A stretch of 64,000 nt of DNA, from positions 64,001 through 128,000 of the forward strand of contig CAWHAE010000015.1 of NCBI GenBank assembly GCA_963827235.1, written 5' to 3'. Numbering within the stretch: position 1 is the stretch's first letter; every line of letters begins with the position of its first letter. The notes under the pieces were generated by a model. It did no database searches and had not been told where the DNA came from. It worked only from the letters and a program-made list of their open reading frames with translations. The translations under genes were made by a program, and so were the position numbers. Positions 34,599-64,000 of this stretch are shown here, in pieces. The DNA comes from an uncultured bacterium (GTDB lineage: Bacteria; Chloroflexota; UBA5177; JANWHV01).

Positions 34599-34611
34599 GG
34601 GACGCTTCCTC

Positions 34612-41893: not shown

Positions 41894-42016
41894 CGATCTG
41901 ACGGCTGCCTTCACCGTCGCCAACACTGGAGTTCCTATCAACGCCGGACAACTCAGTAGTTGCGGCCAACTACCCCGAGCGCGACAGCGGACGCCTGCAC
42001 TGCGCACCCGGACGTG

Positions 42017-42517: not shown

Positions 42518-42543
42518 AGCACCTCCAACGTTGTGAACGATTG

Positions 42544-45196
42544 CTAGTCCGACATTCCTGCACCCGAGCGATAGAGGACTTCGATCTGACCCGAAGACCA
42601 CTCGCTTGGGAAGGACGACTGGAGCCAACGCGTGTAGTCCTGTACCGCTGCCGGAGCACTGACGTACCACCTCACCCCCTTGAGCCCGTTCTCTTGCACA
42701 AACTCAAGCTGCCTCCTCATCTGGTCAGTCAATTCCGCCGTCTTGGTATCGGACGAGGACTTCACTGGATCAAACCATGATCTATGGTACTCTAGGTCAT
42801 TCTTACCGACCCACTTTGGATCTTCCACCCAACCGTCTTGTAGCGCGTCAATGCGGACATGTTGTCCTGCATCTGGACCGGTGGCTAGTTCCCATTCGGT
42901 CTCAAACTCGGTCCCAGTTATGGAGTATTGGTACTTTGGCCAGGCAGCATTTATCGCTCTGCTATACCACCTTATGCCGATAAACGGAGAGACCTGGGCA
43001 GCCTGCCCTTCCTGCGGAACGATATTCCTGGCCAGAGTTGTGGCCTGCTGCGCGCTAATCTGTACCTGGCTACCATTGTCTGCCGCTACTTGTATCTTCC
43101 CAGGCGCAGCCTCCTCCGACTCAACAACGTTGACAGCATCTGCGCCGGACTCGAGAGCAGTGTCAGCCGCCTCAGCTGCGCCGATATCGTCTGGGAGCAG
43201 ATCTTGCTGAAGGATCGCACGTTCCTTGTTACTCACTGCCCCGAGAGCATAGAGCGCGGGAAGACAGACGGCAGATGACGATGCTCCCGACGAGCAGTTC
43301 TCAAACGCAGCGCTGTAGTCGGGAGGCACCCAGCATCCCACGCCTCGTCCGCGCAGGTATGATCCGGCGTGTTGGCCCTTGGTGCACGCCAGATAGCCGA
43401 CCAGTCCCGGCGCAACTAGGCGTGCAAATATGCGCACCTGCACGCCACCGATCGTGGTGTCGATATGATGTGTGGTGCCGGACGAGCGGGCCGCCCGTTC
43501 TGGTCGCAAGAACCTGTCGATGGCCGCTCCTACGCTATAGGGGTACTCCAGCCCGCGGTATATAGTCAGACCGCCGCGCGGGTAGCATCGCCCCATCCTT
43601 TGGCTGCGCATTGTCGAGAATTCAAGGAGGTCTGCATGGTCTTGCAATGTGCCCAGTCCAGCAAGCTGCTTTTCGTATATGTCGACTAGGCTGGTTGTGT
43701 AAAGGCCGTTATGGAACATTAGGTACGCTGGATCCGTGGGCCACGCTACAACGTCGTAGATCTCGGCGAACGCCTGGCGGTGGAGGTTGGCAAACGGGCT
43801 GAAGCTGATTATGTCCGCAGAACCGGACCCGCCCTCGCCGGTGACGTTTGAGAAGGTGTTCTGCGTCGGGTCCGAAGCCAGGAAATCGTTCACGATCGCG
43901 TTCTTGATGAGCGTATCGTCGCCGTTTGGCCACGCCGCAAAGTAGCCCGCGACCGGGCTGGCCGCCTGTCCACTCGGATCCGCGTCCTCATTGGGCCTGT
44001 CGTTGGCATACTCGTAGGACTCACCCGTCTGGTCCAGCAGCGGATCGACGCTCTCGAACTGCCCCTCACTGGGGCTGTACTCCCGGGCCCGCATGTCATA
44101 CGTGCCTGCCGCCGCGTCGTAGTACTGGCCGGCGAACCCGAAGGGCTGGCTGCCCTGCAGGCCGGCGAGGAGCGTGGCACCGCTGCCGGTGGACGTGTCC
44201 GGGTTGGGCCGCGCGTTGCCCCAGGCGTCGTAGGCGCCGGCCCCGATGGTGGCACCCGTCGGGTCGGTGACCACCCGCACGCTGCCCAGCAGGTCGGTGC
44301 CCAGCGTGGCGCTGTGACTGGTGCTCAGGGCGTAGCCGGCCAGCGGTGCCTGGCCGCTGCCCGGATTGAGGTAGGCGTAGTCTGCACTGCCGTCGGAGGC
44401 GAGGTCGGACATGCCGGCCTCCAGGTCCTGCGCGTAGTTGGTGAGAGTTGGCGTGCCGCTTGACGCGTCGTCGGCTGCGCAGGCTGTCGCCCTGGCCGTC
44501 GTAGACGAAGGTCAGATTGGTACTGGGGCTGATCACCTGGATGAGCTGGTTATGCAGGTCGTAGGTATTGGTGATCGTGCCGGTCGGTCCCACGCTGCCC
44601 GTCTGGTTGCCCGCGGTATCGTAGCTATAGGTGGTGGGCTCGCCCGGGCCGACGTCCGAGGCCGTGGAGGCGCTGGTCAACTCGTCCGCCGCGTCGTAGG
44701 TGTTGGCGGTCACCGTGGTGGAGAGGGCTCGGTGGTGGTCAGCGTGACGGTGCTGGTGATCACGGTGCGGTTGCCGGCCGCGTCGTACTGGTCGGCTTCG
44801 GTGCTGCCGTCCGGGTAGCTAGCGTTCGCCAGCTCGCCTGCCCGGTTGTAGCCGAAGCTGGAGGTGCCCCAGCTGTCCTGGATGCCCGTGCGCTCCCCTG
44901 CCGCGTCCAGGGTGTCCGTCTGGCTGAAGAGCACGGTGCCCGAGATGCTCACCGTGGTGTCGAAGGTCCGGCCGGCGCTGTCGTAGCCCCACACCTGGCT
45001 GGTGCCGTTGGCCGCCTGCAGCCGCGTCAGGTTGCCTGCCTTGTCGTAGCCGGCGTGACTGGTGTTGGGCGCCGCCCCCGGCTGGGTCAGCGTGCTCACC
45101 CGACCCGCGGCGTCGTAGCTCCACGTCGCCGTGTGCCCGTCCGGGTAGGTCAGCGTGGTGCGCCGGCCCGCCGCGTCATACGTCTCGTGCAGGTGC
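42544..45196 (-). pseudogene. Orphan Rhs cassette C with a Tox-REase-5-like nuclease tip
   Basis: Frameshifts near 44730 and 44470. DPSG at 43969-43980. Tip has YQYSITG...EW...VRIDAL...DPK...DQMRRQ...VRWYVS. Confidence 0.85.
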
Positions 45197-45259
45197 AGTG
45201 GAGATTGAGCCCGAACGTCGGGTACCCTTCAGTGGCTGGCTCGGAGCCCGATCCGTTTT
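45197..45259. repeat. 63-bp non-coding cassette-head sequence, copy 2
   Basis: 62/63 identical to 41581-41643. Confidence 0.9.
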
Positions 45260-45579
45260 AGCGCTTTCCAACGGCTTTCATTTCGCGCTTGCCGAGGCCA
45301 CGCTTGGCCTGCATAACTGCACGAGTTCGATGCCTGGCGCGAGCTTCAGCCCCATTCCGCCAGGCCCCGCAGGCCGGCACAGCGGGAGCGCCATGAGAGG
45401 CTGGGGAAGGTTGCTGGGTTGAGGCTCGTGCTCCCCGCTGCCGGATCTAGTCGTGTGCAAAGCCGCGAGCGACGCAACAAACACCAGCACTGCGTAGCAC
45501 AACCGTTTCCGATCCGAAGGTGTCGGATTCCGTCGTTCTCCACCTTCCAGCCCGATGCTCCCGCCGTGCTCCCCGGCCG

Positions 45580-46407
45580 TCACTGCTCAGCGCCGCTGCT
45601 GGGAAGTCTGAGAGGAAGAATCCGCTTCATCACGACCTGCGGAGCTTCCTCGGCCCGGACGGCAGCCTGGGATTCCGGCGCGGGAGCGGCAAACTGAACA
45701 AGCGCATGCCTGGCGAAGTTCCGAACTGAAGGGTCGGCGTCCTGCGCCGCCCTTTGCAGCGCGGCAATGACACCGTCCGACGCAACTCCGGCGTTGCCAA
45801 GGGCACCTGCGGCATTTGCACGCACGTCGCAGAACGGATGGGACAGGGACGCAAGGAGCGCTCCGATCACGCCTGCATCTCGGAACTGCAGCGCGCCGAG
45901 CGCCCAGGCGGCTGTCGCCTGTACGTTGGCGTCCCTATCGGCGAGAGCGGCGAGCAGGGCGTCGCGTGCCTCGCCTGTGCTAAGGCCGAGCCTAGCGATG
46001 CTATCCACGACCCAGCCCCGGATGGAAGGCGACTCGTCGGCAAGCTGCGCGGTCAGGCGATGCAGCACGACTGGATCTCCCTTTCCGATGTCACCAAGCG
46101 CTGCAACCGCCGCTTCCCGCACCTCAGGTTCAGTATCCTCCAGGGCGCCCAGCAATCCTTTGACCGCGCCGGAATCGTGCGATGCCCAAGTGGGCATAGT
46201 CAGAGCAGCCAATTCCCGTACGGACGCGTCGGCGTCGGACAGAGCGTCGAGGTAGGCTGCTGTAGCACGAGTTCTCAGCTGCCCAAGATCGTCTTCCTCA
46301 CCGTCCGCTAAAGAGCGCAGGCTTGCAAGCCCCTGGCGTCGTGTGACAGCATCCTCGGCGGCAAGCGCCAGTAATGAGTCGGCGAAACTCAAGATCTGGT
46401 CGTCCAT
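45580..46407 (-). CDS. HEAT/PBS-lyase repeat protein, candidate immunity protein of cassette B
   Basis: Repeated L.D....VR.AA..ALG units. GGAGG RBS. Lies 160 nt downstream of the toxin. Confidence 0.8.
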   Translation of the reverse strand: MDDQILSFADSLLALAAEDAVTRRQGLASLRSLADGEEDDLGQLRTRATAAYLDALSDADASVRELAALTMPTWASHDSGAVKGLLGALEDTEPEVREAAVAALGDIGKGDPVVLHRLTAQLADESPSIRGWVVDSIARLGLSTGEARDALLAALADRDANVQATAAWALGALQFRDAGVIGALLASLSHPFCDVRANAAGALGNAGVASDGVIAALQRAAQDADPSVRNFARHALVQFAAPAPESQAAVRAEEAPQVVMKRILPLRLPSSGAEQ

Positions 46408-46566
46408 GGGTGTATTGAACCTCCGCTTGGCCCAACTATCAGGTTCTCAGTGCAATGCGAGAGCCACGCTTCACATGCCGCCATACCTGCCGCGTTTCTC
46501 GCCAGCGCCTAGCGAGTTGCGCCTTCCTGGAGAAACGGGTGCCGCAGTCGTGGCATCCACAGTGCT

Positions 46567-48741
46567 TCAATTCGGCATCGGGAGATTGTATGCGATCGTG
46601 GTGTACCCACGGCCCGAAGTATCGGTGTTGACTCCGTCCACGTTGAAGTTGTGGAGGTGGAACCGGACAATCAGCACCGGCTTCCCATTGAGGAAGTGAG
46701 TGTGCCGCGCGTCGGGCCTTGGGAAGCTCTCGTCATGTATGTCCGCGACGATGAGGAAGCCGCTAGCAGCGTATGTCTTCGTGGCCCATGAACTGAAATG
46801 CTGCTGCCCGCCGCTCCGGGAATCGTCATACTGGTTGTCGATCTCGACTGAGACCTCTTCGGGTGAATCCGGAAGCCCGATGTAGGCGATACCGAACAGT
46901 GCTGACAGGTAGGCACCGGACCAACAGTGACTGAACAGGCACCAGGCGCCTCCATGCAGGGCAGGCCAACCCGGGGCGCCTGGGCGGGCAGCAGAGATAA
47001 TGATGGTGCCCAATTCCACCTGGTTCTGCCGGCAATTGCAATTAGTCGCGATTGGGTTCTTGCTTAGCGTCGCTGATACGTTATCGTCGGTGAAGATAGT
47101 CACGTGCCTGAATATGCCATAAACATCCGAGTTAACTGAGAATGGCCCTGACCCGGAGGCGTTCGGTCGCGGCTGTGTCAACACGCCTACCAGGTCGGTT
47201 CGGCGCGTGACATGCCCCTCAATTTCACTATCGGTCATGTAGAAGTTGTTGCCCAGGATACTCTGATCGGCGGCACTGGCCGGCTGGCCACAGACAGCCC
47301 TGAAGTAGCCGTAGGGCCTCTGCCAGAAGCAGCCCTCCCACTTCGCGAACGGGTTGGTCGACGAGGCGCAATTCGCCCTCGTACTGGCATTGACCCACGC
47401 CATGGACCCTTGTACCAAGTTGCCGTAGGCACGCGGGAAGTCGCTCTGCGAAAGGCTCCCATCTGATCGGTACTTCACCTCGACGGCGACGAGATCCATA
47501 TGCCCCGGCAGACTCCCTCTGTAGGCGATGAAGTCGGGACCGCGGGCGCTGTCGCCCTTCGCCAACAACCAGCCCATGCCGACCTGAGGATCGATCGTCC
47601 TGTCCCACTGATCAATTCGCCCGGGCTGCGCCGCACCAAAGTTGGGTCCGGAAGCGATCGAGTATCCGGCCTGCCGGTAAAGCTCTACAGCGCACAGCAG
47701 TGCGTCTTGCGATCGAGTAAGGTTGTTGTCCTCGACCTCTGAGTCGCCTTCAGGCGTGGAAGCCAACCCCGCCGCTGGCATAGATGAGGCAACGATCGAC
47801 AGGCCGCTTTCGGCAAGCATGTCGCGCTGCACGATCTTCCCACTCGGATCCGTCGCATCGGTCGGCCTGTCCCCCGCATACCGGTATGGCTCGTTCGTCT
47901 GGTCGAGCAGCGGGTCCTCGCTCTCGAACTGCCCCTCGCTGGGGCTGTACTCCCGTGCCCGCATGTCGTAGGTGCCGGCCGCCGCGTCGTAGTACTGCCC
48001 GGCGAAGCCGAAGGGCTGGCTGCCCTGCATGCCGGCGAGCAGCGTGACGCCGCTGCCGGTGGACGTGTCCGGGTTGGCTCGCGCGTTGCCCCAGGCGTCG
48101 TAGGCGCCGGCGCCGATGGTAGCGCCGGTGGGGTCGGTGACCAGGCGCACGCTGCCCAGCAGGTCGGTGCCCAGGGTAGTGCTGCGCTGGGTGCTCAGCG
48201 TGTAGCCCGCTAGCGGTGCCTGGCCGCTGCCCGGGTCGAGGTAGGCGTAGTCGGCGTTGCCGTCCGAGACCAGGTCGGACATGCCGGCCTCCAGGTCCTG
48301 CGCGTAGTTGGAGAGAGTTGGCGTGCCGCTTGACGCGTCGTAGCTGCGCAGGCGGTCGCCCTGGCCGTCGTAGACGAAGGTGAGGTTGGTGGTCGGGCCG
48401 ATGATGGCCACCAGCTCGTTCCGCAGGTCGTAGGTATTGGTGATCGTGCCGGTGGGTCCCACGCTGCCCGTCTGGTTGCCCGCGGTATCGTAGCTATAGG
48501 TGGTGGGCTCGCCCGGGCCGGCGTCCGAGGCTGTCGAGGCGCTGGTCAACTCGTCGGCGGCGTCGTAGCTGTTGCTGGTCACCGTGGTGGAGAGGGCATC
48601 GGTGGTGGTGAGCGTGACCGTGCTGGTGATCACGGTGCGGTTGCCGGCGTCGTCATACTGGTCGACTTCGCTGCTGCCGTCCGGGTAGCCGGCGCTGGTC
48701 AGCCCGCCTGCCGGGTCGTAGCTGAATCCAGACTCTACCAC
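46567..48741 (-). CDS. Orphan Rhs cassette B (uninterrupted frame): distal YD, core and a C-terminus with a PD-(D/E)xK motif
   Basis: Homology starts at about 48722. PTDATDPSG ends at 47839-47850. RGPDFIAY...VAVEVKYR, followed by a Cys/His-containing tail. Confidence 0.88.
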   Translation of the reverse strand: MVESGFSYDPAGGLTSAGYPDGSSEVDQYDDAGNRTVITSTVTLTTTDALSTTVTSNSYDAADELTSASTASDAGPGEPTTYSYDTAGNQTGSVGPTGTITNTYDLRNELVAIIGPTTNLTFVYDGQGDRLRSYDASSGTPTLSNYAQDLEAGMSDLVSDGNADYAYLDPGSGQAPLAGYTLSTQRSTTLGTDLLGSVRLVTDPTGATIGAGAYDAWGNARANPDTSTGSGVTLLAGMQGSQPFGFAGQYYDAAAGTYDMRAREYSPSEGQFESEDPLLDQTNEPYRYAGDRPTDATDPSGKIVQRDMLAESGLSIVASSMPAAGLASTPEGDSEVEDNNLTRSQDALLCAVELYRQAGYSIASGPNFGAAQPGRIDQWDRTIDPQVGMGWLLAKGDSARGPDFIAYRGSLPGHMDLVAVEVKYRSDGSLSQSDFPRAYGNLVQGSMAWVNASTRANCASSTNPFAKWEGCFWQRPYGYFRAVCGQPASAADQSILGNNFYMTDSEIEGHVTRRTDLVGVLTQPRPNASGSGPFSVNSDVYGIFRHVTIFTDDNVSATLSKNPIATNCNCRQNQVELGTIIISAARPGAPGWPALHGGAWCLFSHCWSGAYLSALFGIAYIGLPDSPEEVSVEIDNQYDDSRSGGQQHFSSWATKTYAASGFLIVADIHDESFPRPDARHTHFLNGKPVLIVRFHLHNFNVDGVNTDTSGRGYTTIAYNLPMPN

Positions 48742-49090: not shown

Positions 49091-50810
49091 GGGAGCGCCT
49101 CAGCTTTGTGTAGCTGAGGCTGTTGATGTTCAGGCTGAGCGCCGGTGACTGACGGCCACGCGACCCCAATAGCCCTTCCCCTTGCCCCAGGGTTTGCCGG
49201 TGGAGACGATGCGCTGCGGTGCGATCGGCGGTGCTGCGCTGTCGGCGGGCGTCGGATCAGTCGGCGCTGGCGCCGGTGCCGCATCCACAGCCGGCCACAG
49301 GCCGGGCAACGCATCGGCGGCGGGGAGCGCGCGCAGGCGGGTGAGGGGTCGGCTGGCCCAGAACATCGCCCAGCGGCCGTGGCCGCTCTGGTGCAGTGCC
49401 CGCAGGTTGGCGATGGCCTGCGCGCCCTGGGGCGTCCAGCGCATGCCGGCCCCCTTGGCGCGCTTGCTGATCAGCTGCTTGCAGCCGCTCTCCACCGCGC
49501 CCGAACCAATGGGCAACTGGCGGGCCACGAAGCGCGGGTAGTCCAGCCGGTCCGCGTTGTCCGTGAAGTACTCCTCCAGGTTGCGGCGCACGACGTCGTG
49601 CGCTTCCGCGGACAGGTCGGGCCGCGCCAGCGGGGCCTGCAACGCGGCGAGCACCGGCGGCGCGCCCTGCTGCAAGAGGGTGTGCCGCTGTTCGGCCTAC
49701 CAGGCACGCGCCGGCAGGCTGCCCGCGCCATACACCGCGCTGGCTACCTCGGCCAGCTGCTCGCTGGCGTGGTAGAAATCAACGATCTCCACCACCGCAG
49801 TGCCCGGGTGGCTGAACTGCGTGCGCGCCTGCTTCCAGATCCAGCGCGCCCCGTCGGCAATCACGACCACTTCCTGCACGCCGCGCGTGAAGCCGGCGCG
49901 CCAGGCCTCCCGGGTCAGGCGCGGAAAGAAGGCCTCGCTGCACTCCAGCCCGGCGCAGAAGCCGGATGGCCCCAGCACGAGTGTCGCGCGTGCCGTCGCG
50001 GCATCTGCGCGCACCGCCGGGCCCAGCGCCGCCACGCGGCCCACCGTCATCTCGCGGTAGCCGTCTTGCAGGGGCGTGTGCACGCCATCGGTCTCCACCA
50101 CCAGCCGCGTGGGCACCGCCTGCGCCGGCACCGCCCATTGCGTGCGGTCGGCCTGCTCGTGCTCGATCAGCGCACCGAGCCCTTCGGCCAGCCGCCGGAT
50201 GGTCTCCTTGGCCACGTGCACCCCGACGCTGCTCGCCACACTCGCGCGCGCCGCGGCGAAGGAGTCCTGCTGCGCCTGCTCGCACACCACCTGGGCCAGG
50301 CCCGGCGAGAGCTGGCCGGCGCCCAGCCCCAGCACACAATCCAGCGGCGCATGGCCCGCCTGGCAGCGCGCGCAGTAGAACGTGGGCCGCATGAACCGAT
50401 ACTCACCGACCAGCCTCAGCACCGTCCGCCGCCGCTCCCGCCCTACCAGGTGCAGCTGCCGGCCACACTGCGGACAGCGGCTCGCCACCCCTTCCGGCCC
50501 TTGCGCGCGCGCCTGCAGTACCACGCCCTCCACGGCGCTCCCTACCTGCCGCAGCACCTGCTGCAAGGCCCGCTCCCCGGCCAGCAAATCACCCGTCAGC
50601 AGCACTTCCACCGCCGCCCACAGCCCGGCCTCCAGGGCTGCCGCCCCGTCCGCCACCGCCGTCGCCAGAATCCGGGTACGCTCCATCGTGCCTCCTCCGC
50701 TCGGGCACGCGCGGTTGACAGATCGCTTGCCGTGCCCTGTAGCCGAGGAGGCTACCTCTTCGCGCGTTACTTTGCCTTAGCCCAGCCGACATCAATCGTG
50801 GGGCGCACCC
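49091..50810 (-). mobile_element. ISKra4-family (UPF0236-like) insertion sequence
   Basis: Imperfect terminal IRs gggagcgcctca (from 49091) and tggggcgcaccc (to 50810) enclose the transposase. No target duplication seen. Confidence 0.75.
49130..50686 (-). pseudogene. ISKra4-family transposase with one in-frame TAG at 49697-49699
   Basis: CPQCG and CARC zinc finger, ETDG, IADGARWIW, VDFYHASE, LPIGSGAVESGCKQL, GMRW. Both ORF halves share a frame. Confidence 0.88.
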
Positions 50811-50892: not shown

Positions 50893-51381
50893 TTAAGAGG
50901 GTGGCGCCCGCTTCACGACGGCAAGCTCAATGGGACTGCCAGGCCAAAGCGCGATCCTGTAAGTATCCTCGCCCTCTAGGCCGTCAGCGCTGAGTGTATC
51001 AAGTCCCGCGAAACAAATCCGCACACGGTAATAACCTGGGCTCACCTTGACGATCAGGTCGTCGGTACCCATCTCAGTGATAACTAGCGTCCCCGACTGG
51101 ATGTTGATACCCGTCTCGACGATGTGGTCCCACTGATCGACGTCTGTCTCCGGTTCTGAGGCGCAAAGCTCAACGTGAACAGGCACACGCATGTTCCTGG
51201 CGGTGGCGATATTCAGCAGCCCTGGCACGGCTATCACACGGTTGGCGAGGTTCTGTGGAGTCCAATCACACCATCCTTCGGTCAACTCGTCGTAGTCACG
51301 ATGTCCATCCTCCAGGTAGAACTGGAAGTAGTCTGCGAAGACAGTCAGGTCAGCCCTGTACGTCACCCGACCTCCAGCCAC
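50893..51381 (-). CDS. Immunity protein of the main toxin, Nin/ComJ-like
   Basis: GGAGG and GTG start. ADYFQFYL, VPVHVEL, WDHIVE, SGTLVI, PGYYRVR and YRIALWP follow a NucB-like tip. Confidence 0.7.
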   Translation of the reverse strand: MAGGRVTYRADLTVFADYFQFYLEDGHRDYDELTEGWCDWTPQNLANRVIAVPGLLNIATARNMRVPVHVELCASEPETDVDQWDHIVETGINIQSGTLVITEMGTDDLIVKVSPGYYRVRICFAGLDTLSADGLEGEDTYRIALWPGSPIELAVVKRAPPS

Positions 51382-51434: not shown

Positions 51435-51806
51435 TCACCGTGTAACGACGATCTTGACTCTCGTTCCATCGGGAAACCTACTCAAGAGACTGCGGATGGT
51501 CGCGCCGAGCCCGCGATTGTCCAGACGTTGTATCGGCCGAATACTGGCTCCCTTCCCGCCCTCAGCAAACATGGCCATGGGAAACTCATCCCGATCCATA
51601 TTAGGGGTGGTTGCGGTGCCGGCAAGTGACTCAGCGCGCCTCGCGGCTGCCCCGGCTCGGTCTATGGTGAGATCAGAGAACTGACCTGCACTGATCGCGT
51701 CCTCAATATGGCTCAGTGCCTGGTCATACGCCGGATAAGCCTGCTTCGATAGGGTTAGGGTGACAACACCTGTTGACGGGTCGACGTTGACAGGACACGG
51801 CCCCGC
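51435..51806 (-). other. NucA/NucB-like DNase toxin tip
   Basis: HIEDAISAG..LTIDR..A..RR.ESL...DRDEFPMAMFAEGGKGASIRPI...DNRGLG. Confidence 0.85.
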
Positions 51807-54800
51807 GTTGTGCACCAGCACCTCGGCCAACCCGACGAAGAAGTCGTGGTCGCTGGCGACGGTGAGGGTGTAGACGTGCGCCTCGCCCATGTTCCAGTGT
51901 ATGCCCAGCACCGTGACGTCGCGCCCGTCTTCGGTGCGCAGCCGGTCACCTGCCTGCAACTGGCCGGCCTCAACCCAGCCGGGTTTGGTCAGGTCACGGC
52001 CGCTGTCCACATAGAACGGATGGTTGCTCGTCACCTTGAGTGTGCTGCCGTCGGAGAGTTCGAGGGCTAGCAGCGGCTTGATGCCGTCGTCGATCACCGC
52101 CAGCACGCGCTCAGCTTCGGGCTTGCCCTTGGCCGGGTCTTCCGCCAGGATGGTGTCGCCCGCGTGCAGGCTGGCGATAGCCACCAGACCGTGCTGGGTG
52201 GCCACACCGGTGTCCGCCGGGAAGCAGGAGCACGGCAGTTCGCCGGTGGTGCCGCCCTGCGCGGTGCACGTCGTGCCCGAACACGGTTCGGTCAACTGGG
52301 CATTGTCGAGCGCCTTGCCCGCTGCCTGCTCTTCTTGGACAGTGGCGGGCTGCATGTGGCCGGATGGATCCAGCAGTTCCAGGGTTGCCTTGCCATCGTC
52401 GAGCATGGTGCCTTGTGTGTGCAGCACCGCCGTTTCAGCCGCTTCCGCCGCAGCGTCGAAGCCACCGCCCGCCGCCGCACCGGCCGCCAGGCGCAGCAAC
52501 GGCCCGGCCAGCTCGGGAGCAACGAAGGTGGCCACCGTGAACATGCGCACCAGCAAGCCCGTGCGTGGGTCGACGGCGACCTGGATGCTGCCCAAGGTCA
52601 GCGCGGCGAGCTTGGTGAGACCGGCCGCAGCCAGGAGGTCGACCTCCACACCACCGGGCAGCCAGGACGGTAGGTGCACGCCTGCCTTCTTGGCCGCGTT
52701 GAAGTAGTCGGTGGCCGCTTGCTCGGTCCAGTCGCCTACCTGGCCGATCGCGCAGGTGAGATTGGTGAGCGCATCGTGGCAGTAGCTAGTGCTGTCCGCG
52801 TAGACCAGGACGCCGGGCGCCTGGGGCCAGAAGGTTAGCGTCTTGCCGTGGTAGGGTGCCGTGAAGGCGGGGTACTCGTCATCCCCGCCGCCATGATAGT
52901 CAGACGGCCGGATCTCAGGAGTGTAGGGGCCGGCGGTTCCCACGAAGGGGATAGCGGCGCTGCCTGCCGGGCCTGGCTTGATGGTGGGGAACTTCCGCAC
53001 CGTCCACGCGCAGCCACCGCCAACCTTCCACAGGCACTGCTGGTCGGTGATCCATGCCACTCCAAACGTCTTGGCGTCGGCAATGAGCGTGTTCACGCCA
53101 TTGATAACCGAGACCTGCTGTGTCAGCGACTTGAAAGACTGAGCATGCTCGATGTCCCAGAGATAGGTCCCGCGGTCGGTGACGGAGATGATGTTCGCGT
53201 TCAGGGTCTTGCCGATGCTGGCCTTCGCGCAGGCCAGGGTGGGCACCGGCTTGGTGAACACGGGTACCCAGAACTCGGTCTCGCTGGCCCGCGCCACGGA
53301 CCAGGCCGGCGTCTTGAGGGCAGTGGTGCCCTGGTCAGCAGTCGTGGTGCCGACGGCAGGCGACTGCGCTACTCTTGCCGCCGCGGCGGCCATCGCAGTC
53401 TCCTGCGCCGCGCTGACCGCCTCGGAGGGATAGAGCACCACAGCGACCGCGCCCTCGATGGCCGACTGCTGCTCATAGTCCTGTGCGGTGGGCAGCGCCC
53501 ATCCTTTCCCACTCGGGTCCGTCCCGTCCGTGGGCATGTTGCCGGCGTACTCGTAGGGGTCCAGCGTCACCGGCACCTGCGGATCGGCAGGCAGCGGATC
53601 CACGCTCTCGAACTGCCCCTCACTTGGGCTGTACTCCCGGGCCCGCATGCCATACGTGCCTGCCGCCGCGTCGTAGTACTGCCCCGCGTAGCCGAAGGGC
53701 TGGCTGCCCAGGAGGCCGGCCAGCAGGGTGGCGCCGCTGCCGGTGGACGTGTCCGGGTTGGCTCTGGCCTTGCCCCAGGCGTCGTAGGCGCTAGCCCCGA
53801 TCGTAGCACCGGTGGGGTCGGTGACCAGCCGCACGCTGCCCAGCAGGTCGGTGCCCAGGGTGGTGGTGCGCTGGGTGCTCAGGGTGTAGCCTGCCAGCGG
53901 TGCCTGGCCGCTGCCCGGATTCAGGTAGGCGTAGTCGGCGTTGCCGTCCGAGACCAGGTCGGACATGCCGGCCTCCAGGTCCTGCGCGTAGTTGGAGAGG
54001 GTTGGGATCGATCCGGAGGCGTCCTCGGCACGCAGCCTGTCGCCCTGCCCGTCGTAGACGAAGGTGAGGTTGGTGGTCGGGCCGATGATGGCCACCAGCT
54101 CGTTCCGCAGGTCGTAGGTGTTGGTGATCGTGCCGGTCTGTCCGGTGCTCCCCACCTGGTTGCCCGCGACATCATACGTATAGGTGGTAGGTTCGCCCGG
54201 GCCGACGTCCGAGGCCGTCGAGGCGCTGGTCAACTCGTCCGCCGCGTCGTAGCTGTTGGTGGTCACCGTGGTGGAGAGTGCACCGGTGGTGGTGAGCGTG
54301 ACCGTGCTGGTGATGACGGTGCGGTTGCCGGCCGCGTCGTACGCATCCTGCTCGCTGCTGCCGTCCGGGTAGCCGGCATTGGTCAGATCGCCCGCCGGGT
54401 CGTAGCCGAAGCTGGAGGTGCCCCAGCTATCGTCGATGGCCGTGCGCTCGCCCGCCGCGTCCAGCGTGTCCGTCTGGCTGAAGAGCACGGTGCCCGAGAT
54501 GCTCACCGTGGTGTCGATGGTCCGGCCGGCGCTGTCGTAGCCCCACACCTGGCTGGTGCCGTTGGCCGCCTGCAGCCGCGTCAGCTTGCCTGCCTTGTCG
54601 TAGCCGGCGTGACTGGTATTGGGCGCCGCCCCCGGCTGGGTCAGCGTGCTCACCTGACCCGTCGCGTCGTAACTCCACGTCGCCGTCTTGCCGTCCGGGT
54701 AGGTCAGCGTAGTGCGCCGGCCCGCCGCGTCGTAGGTGTAATGCAGGTGCATGCTCACCTGGCCCGCTGCCGGCGTGCCCGCCGTGGGCGTGGCCGTGGC

Positions 54801-57800
54801 CGGGGTGACCGTGCCGCAGGTCGTGGCGGTGGCCGTGGGCTCCGCGGCCGGCAGGCTATCGGCGGCAATCTCCACCACCCGGCCTGCGTCCCGCATGGTC
54901 AGCCACAGGTTGCCGGCCTCGTCGAAGGCGATCCCCGTGGGCACGCTGCCCGCCGGCTGGTCGAGCTGGTACTCGCCGATCCTGCCGCCGGCGTCCAGCC
55001 GCCCCACCATGCCCGCCTGCTGCTCCGTGAACCACAGGCTGCCGTCCGGCGCTATCGCCAGCCGGTCCGCCCCCGCGTTGGCCGTGGGCACGTCGACCTC
55101 GCCGAAGGTGCCATCGGCAGTGACGCGGGCGATCTTGTCGTTCGCATACTCGTTCATGAAGACGGTGCCGTCGGGCGCCGCGACGAGGTAGCCGTTGCCG
55201 CCCTCGCCCGCCAGGGAGACCGGGTACTGGGTGACCTGGCCGCTGGCCGTGTCCAGCTTGCCCAGGTAGGCCGGCATGTCGCCCGTGTACGCCAGCGCGA
55301 ACCACAGCACGTGGCCCGCTCCCAAGGCCAGGCCCATCGGCGACCCGGTGTCGCCGTCCTGCACGGGCAGGGGGTCGTCGGCCAGCAGGGTGCCGCTGGG
55401 GTCCACGTGCGCGATCGAGGAACTGCCCGTGCTGTTGACGGACAGCCAGAAGGTGCCGTCGCTGTCCTGCGCGATGCCGGCCAGCTCACCCAGGTCGTCG
55501 ATGGCGGGCAGGGAGACGACCGTCTCGGTGCCGTCCTGCTGGATGTGGAAGAGCTCGTCGTAGTAGCCGGCCGCCCAGATGGAGCCGTCGGTGCCCAGCA
55601 CCATGCCTTCGACGATGTCGTAGCCGGGCGCGGTGAAGCGGCTGACCGTGCCGTCGGCGGCCACGCGGTCGATCTCGTTGCCGTACTCGCCGTAGGTCCA
55701 GGCGTTGCCGTTGTGGTCGACCAGCATGCCGCGCGGACCGAAGCCGCCGGCCAGCTGGTAGGTGGCCAGGCTGGGCAGCAGCGAGTTCGTGTTCGGCGTG
55801 GCCGTCGGCGTCTCGGTCGGCGTGTCGGTACTCGTGGGCGTATTGGTATCAGTTGGTGTGTCGGTGCTCGTCGGGGTGTCGGTCGAGGTGTCCGTATCCG
55901 CCGGCGTGTCGGTGATGGTCGGCGTATCGGTCGCCGTATCCGTGTCTGCCGGCGCCGTGGCACTCGTGCCGGTAGTCGCCGTCGGCGTGGAGGTCGGTGC
56001 CGATTCGCCCTGGCCTTCCTGGTAGTGCGCCGCGATCTGGCCCGGCGTCAGTGCATAGCGATAGACGGCCACGCCGGCAAGCTCGCCATGCAGATACGCT
56101 CCGCCGTCGGTGAGGTCGCAGGCGCCGATCGTGAGCGGACCCACCAGCTCCAGGGCATGGGTCTGCGGCGTATCCTGGTCTACTTGCACGCCGTCCTGGT
56201 AGATCGTGCGCGTGGTGCCGTCGTACGTCGCTACCACGTAATGCCAGCTGCTGCTCATGTCGGAGACACTGTCGTCGTAGAGGTCGTCGTTCCACCAGTA
56301 GTTCGTCAGGCTGTTTTCGTTGTTCCCGTCGGTCGAGAACGCGTTGGTGTCGGAGTCGTTGTTGCCGTAGGGCCCGTAGCCGATGATGCCCTGGCCCGGA
56401 TAGCCGTCCGGGTCCCCGCCGTTGTTGCCGTCCGGCGAGAGGTTGACCCAGGCCTCGAGCGTGTACGCATCATTGCCGGACGGCAGCCCGCTCACCTGCG
56501 GCACGCTGATGTAGCCGGCGTTGCCGTCGAACGCCGCCGAGCCGCTCATGCCGGGCGGCGCGGTCGTGGTGAAGGCCGCGGTGTTCTGCAGGGTTCCGTC
56601 ATAGCCGTTGCCGGTGGCGTCGTGGGCCGTGGTGCCGTCGCTCTCGTCCAGCGGCCAGTAGGCCACGGCGCCGTCGGCCAGCACCGCCGACTCGTAGGCC
56701 GCGGAGCTCGGCGTGGCGGTGCCGGTGGCTGCCGGCGTGGCGGTGCCGGTGACTGCCGGCGTGGCGGTTGCCGTGGTGCAGGCAGGCTGCGGCGCGGTCA
56801 GCACCTCGATGCCGCTCACCAGCGGGTTGTCCGTCTCCCGCACGAAGCTGACCCGCAACTGGCCAAGCTGGTCCGCGGTCACCGGGAAGCTATCCACCAG
56901 CGCCTTGTCCTTGGCTCCCGCCGTGGCATAGATGTCGAACTGGTCGAGCACCTGCTCGCCGTTCACGCTCACGCCGAACAGCCGCTGGCCGGCACTGTCC
57001 CAGGAGAGCTCGGCGAAGTGCAGCCGCAGGGTGTAGCTGCCGCCCGGCTGCAGATTGGGGATGGTGTAGGTAAAGGCACCCCAGCGCGCCGTCTGGTAGA
57101 CCAGCGCCGGCGCCGCGTCGCTCACTCCACTGGTGTCGATGGAATCACTCACGCTCTCCACGTCGCCGTCGGCGCGCTCGGCCCTGCTGTCGCCGCTGAA
57201 GCCGCCCACGTCGCCACCGCCCACGTTGATCGCCGCTACCGTGGTCGGCGTCTCCACCGGCGCGCCCGTGCAGCTCTGCGGCGGGCCGGCCAGCGGGATC
57301 ACCTCCAGGCCGCTGCTTTCCGCCTCGTCTAACACCGAGGTGTAGGCGACCGCGATCTGCCCGTTATCGTCGGCCTGCACGCTGAAGGCGCGCACCACCG
57401 CCGTGTACGGCATGCCCGCGGCGGCGATGATGTCGAAGTGGTGCAGCACGGTGGTGCCGTTGACCGCCACGTCGAACACGCGCTGGCCCGGGCTGTAGAA
57501 GGTGTTGTCCGTGAAGTGCAGGCGGAGGGTGTACCAGCCGTCTGGGGTCAGGTTGGGAATGGTGTAGGTGAAGTCGCCCAGCCGCTCGGTCTGGTAGACC
57601 TCGGCCGGCGGCGGGTCGACCACGCCGTTGGAGTCGACGAGCCCGGTCTGGTTGCCGGTGTCGCCGCCGCTCACGTCCGTGTCGGCCACGAAGACGCCGG
57701 CTCCGTTGCCGCCGCTGTCGATGGCAATCACGGGAGTGGCCGTGGCGGCCGGTGTCGCCGGCGTGCAGGCCGTCTCCACGGCCGGGAACACCTGCACCGC

Positions 57801-60800
57801 CGACACCTCCGCATTGTCGCTGATCGACACGAAGTAGATGACGATATGCCCCCGGTCGTCGGCATGGGTCGCGAACGTGCGCGTCACGGCCACGTCCCGG
57901 CCGCCCGCCGCCCCTTCGATGTCGAAGTGGGAAAGCACCTGATCGCCGTTGATGTTCACGTCGGAGATGCGCCCGCCCGGCTGGTCGTAATACAGCTCGG
58001 CGAAGTGCAGCCGTACGCGGTAGGGAGCATCGGCCGTCAAGCCGGGAATGTCGTAGCGGAAGTAGCCGCCGTTGCGCTCGTTCTGGTACACCTCCTGCGG
58101 CGCAGGGTCGGTCACCCCGCTGGTGTCAATCGTGTCGCCCGTGCCGTCGGTGGCGCCGTTGGCATACGCGTCGTCGTCGAACAGATAGGCTCCGCTGCCG
58201 TAGCCGCCGCTGTCCAGGGCCACCACGGCCGTGGGCGTGGCGGTGGCCGGGCCCCCAACCGTCGCGCAGGGGGGCAGGGGGTCGCTGGGGAACACCTCGA
58301 TGGCGCTCACCGTCGCCTGGTCCAGGACGGAGATGAAGCGCAGGGCCACCTGGCCATTGGCGTCCGCGGTCACCACGAAGGAGCGCGTCACCGCCGTGTC
58401 CTGCAGCCCGGCCGCCGCCCAGACGTCGAAGCGGTGCAGCTCGGTGACGCCGTTGGCCAGCACGTCGAAGAGCCGCTGGTCGGCTCCGCCGTGGTTGAAC
58501 TCCGCGAAGTGCAGGCGCACGCGGTAACTGGCGCCCGGGGTCAGACTGGGCACCACGTAGGTGAAATCGCCGAACATGGCCGCCTGGTAGACGTCCTCGG
58601 GCGCCGCGTCGGCCACGCCGGAGGTATCGATGGGGTCGCCCGTGTTACCCGCACTGCCGTAACCGCCGCTGGTGCCGGGGTCGCCGGCGAAGCGGCCGTC
58701 GGCGTCACCTGCCACGCGGAAGGCGGCCACAGCCGTCGCGGTGGCCGCCGGCGTCGCCGGCGCACAGGCGGGGGCCGGCCCATCGGCCGGGAAGACCTCC
58801 AGACCGCTCAGCTTGGCGTTGTCCACGAGGCTAACGAAGCTCAGGTCGGATATGGCCCAGGGCGTCGGCCGTGGCCGGCACGTCGCGCGTGATCGCCACG
58901 TCCTTGCCGCCTGCCGCCGCCAGGATGTCGAAGTGGTGCAGCACGGCCACGCCGCCGGCATCCACGTCGAACAGGCGCTCGCCGGGCTGGTCCCAATAGA
59001 TCTCGGCGAAGTGCAGTCGCACGCGGTAGTAGCCACCCGGGGTCAGGTTGGGCAGCGTGTAGCTGAAGGTGCCGAAACGCTCCGTCTGGTAGACCGCCTG
59101 CGGCGCCGGATCGGTCACCCCGCTGGTATCGATCGCGTCGCCGCTGTTGCTGGTCGCCCCACCCTGGTTGTCTTCGTCCGCCGCGTAGCCGTCCGCCACG
59201 TCGCCACCGGCGTCGATCGCCAGCACCGCCGTGGGCGTGGGACTGCTTGGCGTGGGCGATGCCGCACAGACCGGCAGGGGGTCGGCCGCCAGCACCTCCA
59301 GCCCGCTCACCATGGCCGTGTCCCGCTCGGCGTCGAAGCGCACCGCCAGCTGGCCGTTGCCGTCGGCCTGCACCGTGAAGCCGCGCACCACCGCCGTGTC
59401 CGTGGCGCCCGCCGCCGCCCACACGTCGAAATGCGAGAGCACCATGCTGCCGTTGATGCTCACGCTGAACAACCGTTGCCCGGGCCCGTTGTCCCAGTCG
59501 TCGGCAAAATGCAGCCGTACGGTGTAGGCATCGCCGGCGGTCAGGCCTTCCACGAGGTACGCGAAGCTCCCCGCCGAGTAGCGTGCCGTCTGGTAGACCG
59601 CTGCCGGCGCCGCGTCCGTCGCCTGGCCGGTGTCGATGGTGTCGCCGCTCGTCAGCACGTCGCCGCCCAGCCAGCCGCTATCCGTGGCGAACGACCCTTC
59701 CGCGTCCCCGCCGGCGTTGATCGCCAGGGGTAGAGTGGCACTGCCGGGTAGCACCAGCGCGCGCCGGATAGCCTTGAACAATGGCCGGGCTCCCGTGCGG
59801 ACCGGCGTCGCGGTAGCCGTGCGTGTGCGCGTCGCGGTAGCCGTGCGTGTGCGCGTCGCCGAGACGGTGCGTGAGGCGGTCGACGTCCGGCTCGTGGTCG
59901 CCGTGGCCGTGGGTGTGCCGCTGGCGGTCGGCGTCTCGGTCGCCGCCGTGGGCGTGTCGCTCTCGGTGGACGTATCCGTGACCGTGGGCGAGAAATCGGC
60001 CGTGGGCGTGCCGGTCGATGTATCCGTGACGTTGCTTGTCGCCGTCGGGCTGGGCGTGCCGGTGGTCGTGTCCGTCGAGCTCGTGGCCGTGCCGGTGGTG
60101 GTCGCGGCGTCGCCGGGCACGGACCCGGTAGCCGTGTCCGTCGCCGAGGCAGGTGCCGTGGCCGTCGCGGTGTCGCTCGTCTGAGCGGACTCCGTGGCGG
60201 TGTCGCTGGGTTGGGCGGGCTCGGCAGCCGTGGCCGTGGCGCTCGGCTCGTCCTGGGCGTCGCGCGCCCGGCCTGCCGGCTTGACCGCGGCCTGCGCGGC
60301 GGCAGCAGTGCGCTGTGCCGATGTCGCGGCGCGGCTCATCGCCGTTGCCGGCGCGTGATAGTCGGTGAGGCCGGCAGGCACCGCCGCTACGCCCCGGGCC
60401 GCTCCCTGCAATCCGGCAACCGTCGACCCGAGCGCCGGCACCCTGCCGCCGCTCGTCATCTGTCCGCTCGTGGAGCTCAGGGACCACACGCTGCTCAGGG
60501 TCTGCGCTGCGCTGCCGGGCCTGTTCGCCTGGCCGGTGGCCAGATGCACGCTCGCGAACGTGGCGCCAAGCTGCTGGGTGACCACGTCCGGCGTCACCCC
60601 GTTCTCCGGCGTGTCGCTCACCGTGGCAGTGGCCGTATCCGCGTCGCCGATCGTGGCAGTGTCCGTGCCGGTGCCGATCGCCGTCGCGGTGTCCGTCCCA
60701 GCTGCCAAGGTGGCGGTGTCCGTGCCGGTCGCCGTGCCCCCGGTGTCGCTGGTCGCCGTCGTGGTCGGGCTGGCCGTCCCGGTGGGCACGCGGCCCAGGC

Positions 60801-63800
60801 CGCCGGCCGTCTCGGTGATGTCCGTGGTCCGTCCCGCCGCGTCGTAACCCCAGCTCACCCGGCTGTCCTGCGTGCTCAGGCTCACCTGCCGGCCCGCCGC
60901 GTCGTAGCCGTGCTGCACGTAGGTGCCGTCGGCATAGCTCGTCTGCAGCGGCTGGTTGTCCGCGTCGTAGGTGGTGGTGGCCACGTGCCCGGCGGCGTCC
61001 GTCACCACGATGGTATTCCCCACCGCGTCGTAGCCATAGGTGGTGGTGCGGCCCAGGGGGTCGCTGCCGCCGGTCAGGCGGCCGGCCAAGTCGTAGCGGT
61101 TCGTGCGCACGTGCCCGTTGGCGTCGGTCACCGCGATGGTGTGGCCCAGGGCATCGTAGCCGTAGGTCGTGCGGTGGCCCGCCGGGTCGGTGACCGCAAT
61201 CAGCCGGCCCGCCGCGTCATAGGTGTTGCCGGTGGTGCGGCCCAGGGGATCGCGCAGACTGGTCTGCCGGCCGTCCTGGTCGTAGCCGTAGCCGGTGACG
61301 TCCTGCAGCCCGTCGGCGCTGCTCAGCAGCCTGCCCGCCGCGTCGTAGGTCTTGCCGGTCACCCGGCCGGCCCCGTCCGTGATCAGGATGGCATGGCCCA
61401 GGGCGTCGTACTGGGTGAGCGTGAGGTCGTTGTTGCCGTCGTTGCTGCCCACCAGGCGGCCGGCGGCATCGTAGGCGCTGGCCGTCCAGCGGCCGGTGGC
61501 GTCGGTGACCAGCACGGCATGACCCAGGGCGTCGTACTGGGTGCGGGTGGTGTGGCCCAGGGCGTCGGTGCTCGCCACCAGCCGGCCGGCGGCATCGTAG
61601 GTGCTGCCGGTGGTGTGGCCCATCGGGTCGGTGACGCCGGTCTGCCGGCCCAGGGCATCGTAGGCGTAGCGCGTGGTGCGGCCCAGGGCGTCGGTATCGG
61701 CGGTCAGGCGGCCGTCCAGGTCGTAGCTGCTGGCGCGGGCATGGCCGTCCGCGTCGGTGACGGCGATGGTATGGCCCAGGGCGTCGTAGCCGTAGGCGGT
61801 GGTGGCGCCCACGGCGTCGGTGGCGGCAAGCAGCCTGCCCGCCGCGTCGTAGCTGCTCGTGTTCAGGCCACCCAGGGCGTCGGTGACGGCGATGGTGCGG
61901 CCCAGGGCATCGTAGGCGGTGCGGGTCAGGTTGCCCAGGGCGTCGGCGCTCGCGGTCAGCCGGCCGTCGCCATCGTAGCTGCTGCGGGTCACCGCGCCGG
62001 TGGGATCGGTGACGGCGATCGTGTGGCCAAGGGCGTCGTAGCCATACTGCGTGGCCTCGCCCAGGGCGTCGATGCCGGCGGTCAGGCGGCCGTCGGGGTC
62101 GTAGGTGCTGGTCGTCACGTTGCCCAGGGCGTCGGTGACGGCGATGGTGTGCCCGAGCGCGTCGTAGCCGTAGACGGTAGGATTGCCCAGCGCATCAATG
62201 CTGGTGAGCAGTCGGCCGCCGGCATCGTACTGGCTGTAGGCGGTGTTGCCGCCCGCGTCGGTGACGGCGAAGGTGCGGCCCAGGGGGTCGTACTGGTAGC
62301 GCGTGCTATCGCCCAGCGGGTCGCTGCTGGCGACCTGACGTCCATCGGCATCGTAGCTGGTGCGCCACACCTTGCCCGCCGCGTCCTTGCGCGTGGTCTG
62401 CTCGCCGTCGGCGTCATAGCCGTAGCCGGTCGCGTAGCCCAGGGCGTCGGTGCTCCCTGTTAGCCGCCCCGCCGCGTCGTAGGCGCTCTGCGTCACCCCG
62501 CCCAGGGCATCGGTGACGGCAATGGTGCGGCCCAGCGCGTCGTAGCCGTACTCGGTCGGATTGCCCAACGCGTCCGTGCTCGCGGCCAGCCGGCCGTCGT
62601 CATCGTAGCTGCTGCGCGTCACGTTGCCCAGGGCATCGGTGACGGCGATCGAGCGCCCGAGCGCATCGTAGCCGTAGCTCGTAATGTTGCCCAGGGCGTC
62701 CGTGCTGCTGCTCAGCCGCCCGCCCAGGTCGTAGCTGCTCCCGGTCACGTTGCCCAGGGCGTCGGTGACGGCAATGGTGTGGCCCAGGGCGTCGTAGCCG
62801 TAGCGCGTCGTGTAGCCCAGGGCATCGGTGCTCGCGGCCAGGCGCCCGTCGGCGTCATAGGTGCTGCGCGTCGTGTAGCCCGCCGCGTCCGTCACCGCGA
62901 TGGTGCGGCCCAGGGCATCGTAGCCGTACGCGGTGCCGTTCCCGAGCGCATCCACGCTCAGCGCCAGCCGGCCGTCGCCGTCGTAGCTGCTCGTGCTCAC
63001 GTTGCCCAGGGCATCGGTGACGGCGATCGTGTGTCCGAGCGCGTCGTAGCCGTAGCTTGTGCCGTTGCCCATGGCATCGGTGCTCACCAGCAGGCGGCCG
63101 TCCGCGTCGTAGCTGCTGCTGGTCGAGCGGCCCAGCGGATCGCTGCGCCGCACCTGGCGTCCATCGGCGTCGTACCGGTAGCTCGTCGCCCCGCCCAGCG
63201 CGTCGGTGCTGGTCACCAGCTCGCCGTCCGCGTCGTACTGGCTGGCCGTCACGTTGCCCAGCGCGTCGGTGACGGCAATGGTGTGGCCGAGCGCGTCATA
63301 GTCGTAGCTGGTGCCGTTGCCCAGGGCATCCGTGCTCTCGGCCAGGCGGCCGTCCGCGTCGTAGCTGCTCTGGGTCACCCCGCTCAGCGGGTCGGTGACC
63401 GCGATGGTGCGGCCCAGGGCGTCGTAGCCGTAGGCGGTCGCGTTCCCCAGGGCGTCCGTGCTCGTCTGCAGCCGGCCATCCGCATCGTAGGCGCTCCGCG
63501 TCACCCCGCCCAGGGCATCGGTGACGGCAATGGTGTGCCCGAGCGCGTCGTAGCCGTAGCTCGTACTGTTGCCCAGGGCATCGATGCTGCTGCTCAGCCG
63601 CCCGTCCGCGTCGTAGGTGCTGCGCGTCACGTTGCCCAGGGGATCGGTGACGGCGATCGTGTGGCCGAGCGCGTCGTAGCCGTAGGTCGTCGTATTGCTC
63701 AGGGCATCGGTGCCGGCGGCCAGCCGGCCCTCGGCGTCGTAGGTGCTGCGGGTCACGTTCCCGCCGGCGTCGGTGACGGCAATCGTCTGGCCGAGGGCGT

Positions 63801-64000
63801 CGTAGCCGTAGGTGGTGGCGTTGCCCAGGGCGTCGGTGCTGGTCAGCAGGCGGCCGTTGCCGTCGTAAGCGCTCTGCGTCACGTTGCCCAGCGGGTCGGT
63901 CACTGCGATGGTGCGGCCCAGCTCGTCGTACAGGTAACCCGTGCCGCGGCCCAGGGCATCCGTCTTGCCGATCAGCCGCCCGGCCTGGTCGTACGCGTAG
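51435..64000 (-). CDS. Giant Rhs/YD-repeat polymorphic toxin (5' end outside window; one frameshift at about 58849)
   Basis: ORFs 58831-63903 and 51435-59036 join within malectin domain 2 if one base is removed (GHI-DLSFVSL). More than 4,100 aa are visible. PTDGTDPSG ends at 53508-53519. Confidence 0.92.
51807..52226 (-). other. Pretoxin HINT autoprocessing domain (140 aa)
   Basis: CFPADT, TSNHPF, VYTLTV..DHDFFVG...VLVHN. Confidence 0.9.
54865..55775 (-). other. Vgb (virginiamycin B lyase)-like beta-propeller domain inside the Rhs protein
   Basis: Repeated blades PDGSLWFTE, DGSIWAA, AGNLWLT. Confidence 0.75.
56020..56700 (-). other. LamG/concanavalin-like domain inside the Rhs protein
   Basis: VAYWPLDE, YTLEAWV, WHYVVATYDG...IYQDG, GELAGVAVY..ALTP.QI..HY. 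Confidence 0.85.
56800..59735 (-). repeat. Six tandem malectin-like domains inside the Rhs protein
   Basis: Six copies of AI[ND].GG...VYQ[TN].R...F.Y...Y.[VL]RLHF...R.F.V.[IV]NG...FD[IV]...AG...VS[GA][LI]EV. Confidence 0.9.
60810..64000 (-). repeat. YD-repeat array (21-aa hairpins alternating as 42-aa/126-bp units)
   Basis: About 50 repeats alternating YGYDALG[HR]TIAVTDALG and SSYDA[DA]GRL..STDALG. Continues beyond the window. Confidence 0.95.

Follow-up and report, generated by a model that had tools for sequence, protein, structure and literature searches.

In silico analysis of a 64,000-nucleotide stretch of contig CAWHAE010000015.1 from an uncultured Chloroflexota bacterium (the window, G000:C15:64001-128000) identified a very large gene on the minus strand which, judged by its YD repeats and its Rhs core with autoprotease motif, is a member of the Rhs/YD polymorphic toxins. 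The gene runs from window position 51435 to beyond 64000, comprises ~5,470 codons if read as one, and is represented by two overlapping open reading frames (ORFs), namely ORF-A (3024 codons, minus strand, from 58831 past 64000) and ORF-B (2533 codons, minus strand, 51435-59036). Extension of the gene upstream, suggested as a check in an initial annotation made from the letters of the window, reached the start of ORF-A 3.9 kb past the window end in the same contig. That annotation had described a YD array that stops at ~60795 and resumes at ~54760 on the far side of a lectin and propeller arm; the two points were here mapped to 60793 and 54752, its coordinates were right to within a few bases, and its domain list was borne out by the translations and by Pfam. 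The features of the gene within the window are as follows, in the order of translation:

60793 to 64000, minus strand: in-window part of the N-side YD array (RHS_repeat of Pfam, map with a YD hidden Markov model (HMM), tandem-repeat analysis)
59728 to 60792, minus strand: Thr/Ala-rich low-complexity linker of ~355 residues, after ...TETAGGLG (translation; no Pfam family)
59287 to 59727, minus strand: malectin domain 1 (Pfam Malectin and motif map)
58788 to 59223, minus strand: malectin domain 2, interrupted by the frame shift of one base (translations and motif map)
58287 to 58724, minus strand: malectin domain 3 (Pfam and motif map)
57792 to 58223, minus strand: malectin domain 4 (Pfam and motif map)
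57294 to 57728, minus strand: malectin domain 5 (Pfam and motif map)
56796 to 57236, minus strand: malectin domain 6 (Pfam and motif map)
56013 to 56696, minus strand: LamG-like (Laminin_G_3) domain, ORF-B residues 837-1002 (Pfam, E 2.2e-17)
55770 to 56012, minus strand: Thr/Pro/Asp-rich linker (translation)
54852 to 55769, minus strand: Vgb-lyase-like beta-propeller (Pfam Vgb_lyase, E 4.5e-36)
54753 to 54851, minus strand: Pro/Thr/Ala linker of 33 residues, right before the resumed YD array (translation)
53502 to 54752, minus strand: C-module, ORF-B residues 1429-1845, which combines YD hairpins (~330 residues) with the Rhs core and the cleavage motif DPSGKG (AlphaFold2 model, VIA, family identity)
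52227 to 53501, minus strand: N-part of the cargo, 425 residues, containing a hydrophobic stretch (no Pfam match)
51804 to 52226, minus strand: pretoxin HINT domain (PF07591, E 1.2e-18)
51438 to 51803, minus strand: NucB-family DNase toxin domain (phmmer against PDB)

The YD array is thus interrupted between 60793 and 54752 by 6,040 nt, or ~2,010 residues, which encode in order a Thr-rich linker, six malectins, a LamG-like domain, a linker rich in Thr and Pro, a Vgb-like propeller and a Pro/Thr linker. On the N side the array extends over ORF-A residues 906-2371 (~1,465 YD residues by our own YD-HMM), matches RHS_repeat (PF05593) in 30 stretches (E 6.6e-223) and ends with ...WGYDAAGRTTDITETAGGLG at 60793; on the C side it resumes with MHLHYTYDAAGRR at 54752 and matches the same family with an E-value of 4.4e-16. 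At the DNA level the N-array consists of 22.4 tandem copies of a 126-nt unit, and no paralogue of it was found in the source genome by tblastn. Upstream of it, beyond the window, lie a putative signal peptide (a signal-peptide-like N-terminus RKRPILAWTTIAVLVLQSLSPLAQA/SAQ, read by eye) and, by Pfam, a weak match to a BNR/Ycf48-like propeller, FlgD_ig and DUF6531, while PAAR was not found in a Pfam scan of the N-terminal 1,469 residues. Elsewhere in the window, an 822-codon ORF (29058-31526, minus strand) has an end (...TCVAVGTGGEILHMS) that resembles the BNR-type propeller motif of this N-terminus.

Within the arm, Pfam assigned two Malectin stretches to ORF-A (E 1.3e-40) and four to ORF-B (E 1e-72), in agreement with six VYQxxR motifs. 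The six domains belong to the Malectin family by sequence, and carbohydrate binding is predicted for them from that membership; the arm may accordingly be pictured as binding surface carbohydrate on target cells. An orthologue of the malectin arm in an Rhs gene, or of the family's N-array, was encountered neither among 40 relatives, nor among 150 other genomes of the phylum, nor in four genomes of the same genus (tallies over the relatives and over the phylum include the unpublished G018 and G055, on which no specific claim depends). A search for full-length orthologues among proteins of 4,434-5,000 residues returned one family member (P0123), which has no malectin arm, and the corresponding search of genome contigs yielded the P0004 locus only.

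ORF-A and ORF-B change frame by one base at 58848-58850, where the initial annotation had placed an indel (about 58849). The shift lies within malectin domain 2 and is the sole break in ~16.4 kb of otherwise open frame. It may be that the gene is dead, i.e. that the shift is real, ORF-A ends in malectin domain 2, ORF-B is left without a start or signal peptide and the architecture is a relic. The shift is indeed present in the assembly, ORF-A meets a stop five codons past it, no slippery sequence was seen by eye at 58848-58850, and many cassettes of the same locus (see below) are also broken by stops. Against this stand the single occurrence of the break, the fact that a one-base indel is also a common assembly error, and the intactness of both halves of malectin domain 2, which reads from '...ADALGHI' in one frame to 'DLSFVSLVDNAKLSGLEVF' in the other with the same spacing as the other five malectins. 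We regard a dead gene as a serious possibility, if a somewhat doubtful one, and it would fit either structural model discussed below (one shell or two bodies). Of the public reads, one run (X1, 7% of sampled words) gave, over window positions 54000-61500, only fragments of 151-357 bases besides many short cross-matches from other organisms, too little coverage to judge the indel or either junction.

To place the interruption in context, the YD arrays of related proteins were compared. The same split site, with the motif ...W[GA]YDAAGRT..[ILV]TET before the insert and [ML]xLxYxYDxAxRR after it, occurs in six other groups of metagenomic or metagenome-assembled-genome sequences (P0004/L021/L028; P0005; P0006/L033/L032; P0123; L031; and L039/L040/L037). 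Including the main gene, the inserts range from 135 to ~2,010 residues, and a Pro/Thr linker precedes the resumed array in every family member examined. The inserts are:

P0005: a linker only, 135 residues
P0004: DUF7948 and an SBBP propeller, 925 residues
P0006, L032 and P0123: an unnamed domain after a basic low-complexity stretch, ~640 residues
L039 and L037: DUF11
L031: a weak Ig-like match (Big_3_5)
Main gene: the malectin-LamG-Vgb arm, ~2,010 residues

The whole C-module can be aligned with ordinary Rhs proteins at 24-39% identity, and in 18/18 of these the YD cover continues through the equivalent point without a break, so that the insert sits inside an array that is continuous elsewhere. 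Since the relatives carry differing modules, or a linker alone, at exactly that site, the split hairpin would appear to be a general slot for receptor-binding modules. L032 and L033 (= P0006), which share insert and C-module, have N-arrays of 1,550 and 310 residues, respectively, a difference that reflects either repeat variation or assembly collapse. In P0003 a second Pro/Thr-rich stretch (~60-80 residues, at residues ~905-985) lies between two C-module hairpins, and other hairpins can therefore tolerate inserts too.

The comparison also bears on the possibility that a lectin adhesin gene was misjoined into an Rhs gene at repeats during assembly. The source genome is in 21 contigs, with 96% completeness and 9% estimated contamination, and the locus is full of repeats, which speaks for such a chimera. 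Nevertheless, both YD flanks end exactly where independent contigs from other samples split, the propeller-to-C-module junction recurs in paralogous cassettes on contigs C12 and C15, the malectins are only ~50% identical to one another at the protein level (self-hits 53-55%), and the open frame runs through both junctions. A chimeric origin is thus considered highly improbable.

Structural modelling was used to assess how the two YD segments relate to each other. An AlphaFold2 model of the C-module, built on a 45-row alignment, reached a pLDDT of 84 and a pTM of 0.81. In a Foldseek comparison with the Salmonella bongori Rhs structure 8qjb it gave a TMq of 0.74 and a TMt of 0.32, and in VIA it aligned to residues 982-1416 of that protein (Z 32, rmsd 2.7-2.8 over 372 residues), to residues 211/225-654/689 of TcC (Z about 30), to residues 2069-2718 of SGS1 (Z 28.8) and to the teneurin-like protein 9ifo (Z 26.6); it aligns likewise to every YD shell. 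Because only the C-terminal part of the solved cocoons was matched, the C-module as modelled is the last ~40% of an ordinary Rhs shell and not a whole shell.

A complex model of the last 520 residues of the N-array with the C-module gave an ipSAE of 0.85 in 3/3 runs, the best of three controls reaching 0.00. In the tool's calibration, whose counts apply only roughly here because our own alignments were used, the mark was reached by 58/80 solved complexes and by 2/110 mismatched pairs. The contacts agree to at least 95% between runs, and the pLDDT of the partners is at least 87. The contacts of lowest predicted error run antiparallel between residues 508-519 of chain 1 and residues 1-15 of chain 2, i.e. 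in the model the final strand of the N side lies against the opening strand of the C side, in keeping with the proposal of the initial annotation that the resumed array reads as the next strand of the same hairpin series. Over ~255 residues of either chain, additional contacts reappear with a period of 21 residues, the pattern that adjacent turns of a spiral should give, and from this period the N-array would make ~5.6 turns and the C-module ~1.3 turns; cocoons of type VI secretion system (T6SS) Rhs proteins have been described as triple-layered (PMC11461821). The modelled junction supports a continuous spiral, irrespective of whether the shell is closed and of what it contains.

On these grounds the two YD segments probably behave as parts of one beta-spiral, from which the arm loops out, and this is the reading that we favour, albeit with some reserve. 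It retains the core of what the initial annotation had put forward, and draws on the 18 unbroken relatives, the partial-shell nature of the C-module, the complex model and the low-complexity linkers around the arm; the accompanying suggestion that the architecture lacks a precedent did not hold, as discussed below.

A different arrangement would consist of two separate YD bodies, in which the N-array forms its own solenoid or stalk holding the arm off the cell, the C-module is an autonomous tethered cap and the arm serves as the linker. This would account for the stand-alone secreted C-module genes described below, for the long disordered linkers on both sides of the insert, for the recent-looking character of the N-array with its 22.4 tandem copies of 126 nt, and for the N-array lengths of 1,550 (L032) and 310 (L033) residues despite the same insert and C-module. 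It is less easily reconciled with the match of the C-module to only the last ~40% of solved shells, with the mid-array position of the equivalent point in all 18 ordinary relatives, with the joining of the flanking strands in the complex model, and with P0005, where a mere 135-residue linker occupies the site. We consider two separate bodies unlikely.

Several further observations nonetheless weigh against a single spiral with a looped-out targeting arm. Three distinct stand-alone genes (L012 = L030/L029, L043 and L045) encode a signal peptide, a short Pro/Thr linker, the C-module and cargo, with no N-array in the same frame. One of these, L012 (G003:C81:20806-23367) in the same-genus genome G003, follows cell-wall synthesis genes (identified by eye) and has no Rhs array within 20 kb upstream, and an N-array of the family type was not found in the four same-genus genomes (83-92% complete). 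Since such genes exist without a family N-array nearby, the C-module may fold and act alone. The score of the complex model may reflect memory of, or likeness to, solved Rhs and TcB-TcC cocoons, and its controls were unrelated proteins rather than a non-adjacent YD segment, such that the result may not be specific to the junction. Moreover, the 688 residues that follow the cleavage motif make a large cargo to encapsulate, and malectin matches elsewhere (151 genomes of the phylum, its own included) lie mostly in open frames of fewer than 1,300 residues. Glycan binding and cell targeting would follow from domain names only. Finally, the main gene is frame-shifted, and the shift may be either real or a sequencing or assembly error.

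Under the favoured reading of one spiral, the C-module would close the shell. It is 59-70% identical to that of its closest family members and carries the autoprotease motif PxxxxDPxG of the Rhs core (...RAREYSPSEGQFESVDPL...DPYEYAGNMPTDGTDPSGKG), at which cleavage is predicted; D416, S418 and G419 of the C-module are invariant in six family sequences. The 688 residues beyond the cleavage motif end in the pretoxin HINT domain and a NucB-type DNase. The latter matched nuclease 6ejs (E 4.8e-26) and NucB 5omt (E 3.6e-25) in a phmmer search of PDB, and scored 23.0 bits with Pfam DNase_NucA_NucB, slightly below the cut-off of 23.8 bits. Residues 73-236 of the cargo N-part share ~25% identity with P0004 and P0123. 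Assignment of this part to PT-TG was rejected, as the best Atlas score to a PT-TG cluster (0.87) lies below the trustworthy level, and it is retained as a lead only.

The surroundings of the gene were also surveyed, and the window contains the following features downstream of it:

50893 to 51381, minus strand: 162-codon ORF directly downstream, a candidate immunity gene by position only (ORF list; no Pfam family)
31660 to 48741, minus strand: five orphan cassettes of propeller and C-module, with differing C-terminal ends and followed by small ORFs (tblastn and Pfam)

In total, tblastn detected eleven partial propeller/C-module copies in the genome (57-97% identity), comprising the five downstream in the window, three more beyond the opposite end of the gene, a pair at the beginning of contig C12 and one on C14. 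Several of the cassettes end in other C-terminal parts, several are interrupted by stops, and none extends into the malectins; the locus is typical of rhs loci. The same orphan cassette with its 274-codon downstream ORF occurs, inverted, on both sides of the main gene (G000:C15:102398-105138, i.e. window 38398-41138, and G000:C15:142424-145014). Between the candidate immunity ORF and the first orphan cassette there is an ORF (window 49697-50686, minus strand) that matches UPF0236 (transposase-like; E 2.7e-7), and a HEAT-repeat protein (HEAT_2, E 5.3e-26; window 45580-46407, minus strand), possibly an immunity protein by position, directly follows the cassette at 46567-48741. With regard to export, neither TssC (PF05943; the control matched in E. 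coli) nor Omp85/BamA (the control matched in seven named genomes) was found in the 96%-complete genome. For this reason a T6SS route appears unlikely, and Sec export from a cell that would not possess a classical outer membrane appears likely.

Taken as a whole, the locus may be pictured as encoding one Sec-exported Rhs/YD polymorphic toxin of ~5,470 codons, whose YD hairpins would together wind into one long beta-spiral cocoon. DUF6531 would plug this cocoon at its N end, and the Rhs core, with the aspartyl autoprotease (DPSGKG), would seal the C end. The chain would leave the shell at one hairpin turn ~415 residues before the cleavage site and return after ~2,010 residues, the arm hanging outside the cocoon on two flexible tethers, where it would bind surface carbohydrate of target cells. 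Recombination with the orphan propeller/C-module cassettes would allow the toxin end to be swapped, as happens at other rhs loci. A more speculative scheme, to which we attach little probability, is a two-piece cocoon in bacteria that have no outer membrane. In such a scheme the long N-array would serve as the acceptor, and cap, autoprotease and toxin would arrive together on exchangeable C-module cartridges. The link between the two pieces would be either covalent, by a tether also used as the arm slot, or in trans, by stand-alone secreted C-modules docking on an open array, in a division of labour like that of Tc B and C, with TcA dispensed with. By what means Sec-exported Rhs toxins locate and enter their targets is poorly understood. 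If the hairpin is indeed a conserved slot that receives lectin strings, propellers, Ig-like domains or nothing, it would constitute a defined, testable receptor-binding site on the cocoon and a natural example of binding specificity and toxin identity being shuffled separately.

The initial annotation did not know this architecture from characterised Rhs toxins. Taken as a claim of no precedent, this has to be withdrawn in view of the solved shell insertions in TcB and SGS1 and of the adhesin arrays in all three metagenomic Rhs proteins scanned with a large gap before a short terminal YD segment. In these proteins (P0051, P0052 and P0139), as in the main gene, DUF6531 and a YD array are followed by a long adhesin-type array (11 PKD; Big_1/Invasin_D3 with PKD; and 8 CarboxypepD_reg, respectively) and then by a short YD segment. 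These uncharacterised proteins differ from the main gene in lineage (~30% identity), in the inserted domains and in the hairpin used; in P0052, for example, the YD array resumes ~215 residues before the core motif, against 371 in the main gene. Across 235 retrieved Rhs proteins, a set biased toward very long proteins, 97 have a gap of at least 100 residues in their YD-HMM cover, and the YD content of the main gene (~1,465 + 330 residues) is about twice the median of 980. One such gap, in P0079 (residues 1586-2902), was dismissed as an insert, since, read by eye, it comprises the close of a first Rhs unit, with core motif and toxin region, and then the beginning of a second one in the same open frame. 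P0094, P0147, P0168, P0170, P0214, P0237 and ~40 more are giants of 4,400-5,000 residues, mostly proteobacterial and often named LysM-domain proteins; they have 2,000-2,500 YD residues, 500-900 residues that the YD-HMM does not cover and then 330-480 YD residues. In P0168 no Pfam domain was found in the gap, and the LysM domain follows the final YD segment rather than sitting in the gap. Mapping of the insert site onto these giants by BLAST projected 5/97 to within 40 residues of a gap, four of those five being the family itself; the matches slide in the repeats, and homology of the site was dropped. Shell-inserted domains in general are neither unprecedented nor rare in sequence data.

A literature search, supplements excluded, found among the papers listed none that combines Rhs, 'YD repeat' and malectin and no bacterial Rhs toxin with a shell insert, and surfaced papers on SGS1 and on teneurin-like proteins. 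WapA-type Rhs proteins, which are Sec-exported from Gram-positive bacteria, share with the main gene DUF6531, the YD array, the Rhs core, a nuclease at the C-terminus, a small downstream ORF and orphan cassettes, together with a signal peptide that is putative in the main gene. Their binding domains normally lie N-terminal to a continuous YD array, whereas the arm of the main gene lies inside the array. Bacterial teneurin-like proteins likewise carry their adhesion domains N-terminally, with TTR, TIP, FN-plug and NHL before the YD shell (PMC13018210); these four are absent among the Pfam matches of the main gene.

In Tc toxins, the TcB propeller is inserted within the TcB RHS repeats. The Tc BC cocoon (TcdB2-TccC3, YenB-YenC2) resembles the predicted product in its large YD cocoon, aspartyl autoprotease and encapsulated toxin, and the beta-propeller of TcB caps it (PMC8765631). 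By comparison, SpvB and TcdB_mid are absent among the Pfam matches of the main gene, its propeller is of the Vgb-lyase type on a 33-residue linker, and its split point lies ~215 residues inside the TcC-equivalent region and not at the B/C boundary; a search for TcA (VRP1) gave no match, but its control matched nowhere either. A further close parallel is mosquito SGS1 (PDB 8FJP), a salivary YD cocoon of bacterial ancestry in which, as in the main gene, a propeller and lectin-type domains interrupt the YD repeats (a propeller, a carbohydrate-binding module (CBM) and a lectin domain in SGS1; PMC9935623). SGS1 differs in carrying single compact domains at several sites, where the main gene has, at one site, eight domains strung over 2,010 residues and held by long disordered tethers; in its lectin folds, which are an Ig-like CBM and a carbohydrate-recognition domain (CRD) as opposed to malectin and LamG; and in its cocoon content, which is helices, whereas the cargo of the main gene ends in a nuclease. 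Homology of the insertion sites of the two is not established. What is new here is the size and composition of the arm, the conserved hairpin as an apparent slot for differing modules in one bacterial family, and the stand-alone C-modules. Shell-inserted receptor domains, known from the two solved structures of TcB and SGS1, would thereby extend to free-living bacteria as well, with an arm far larger than either.

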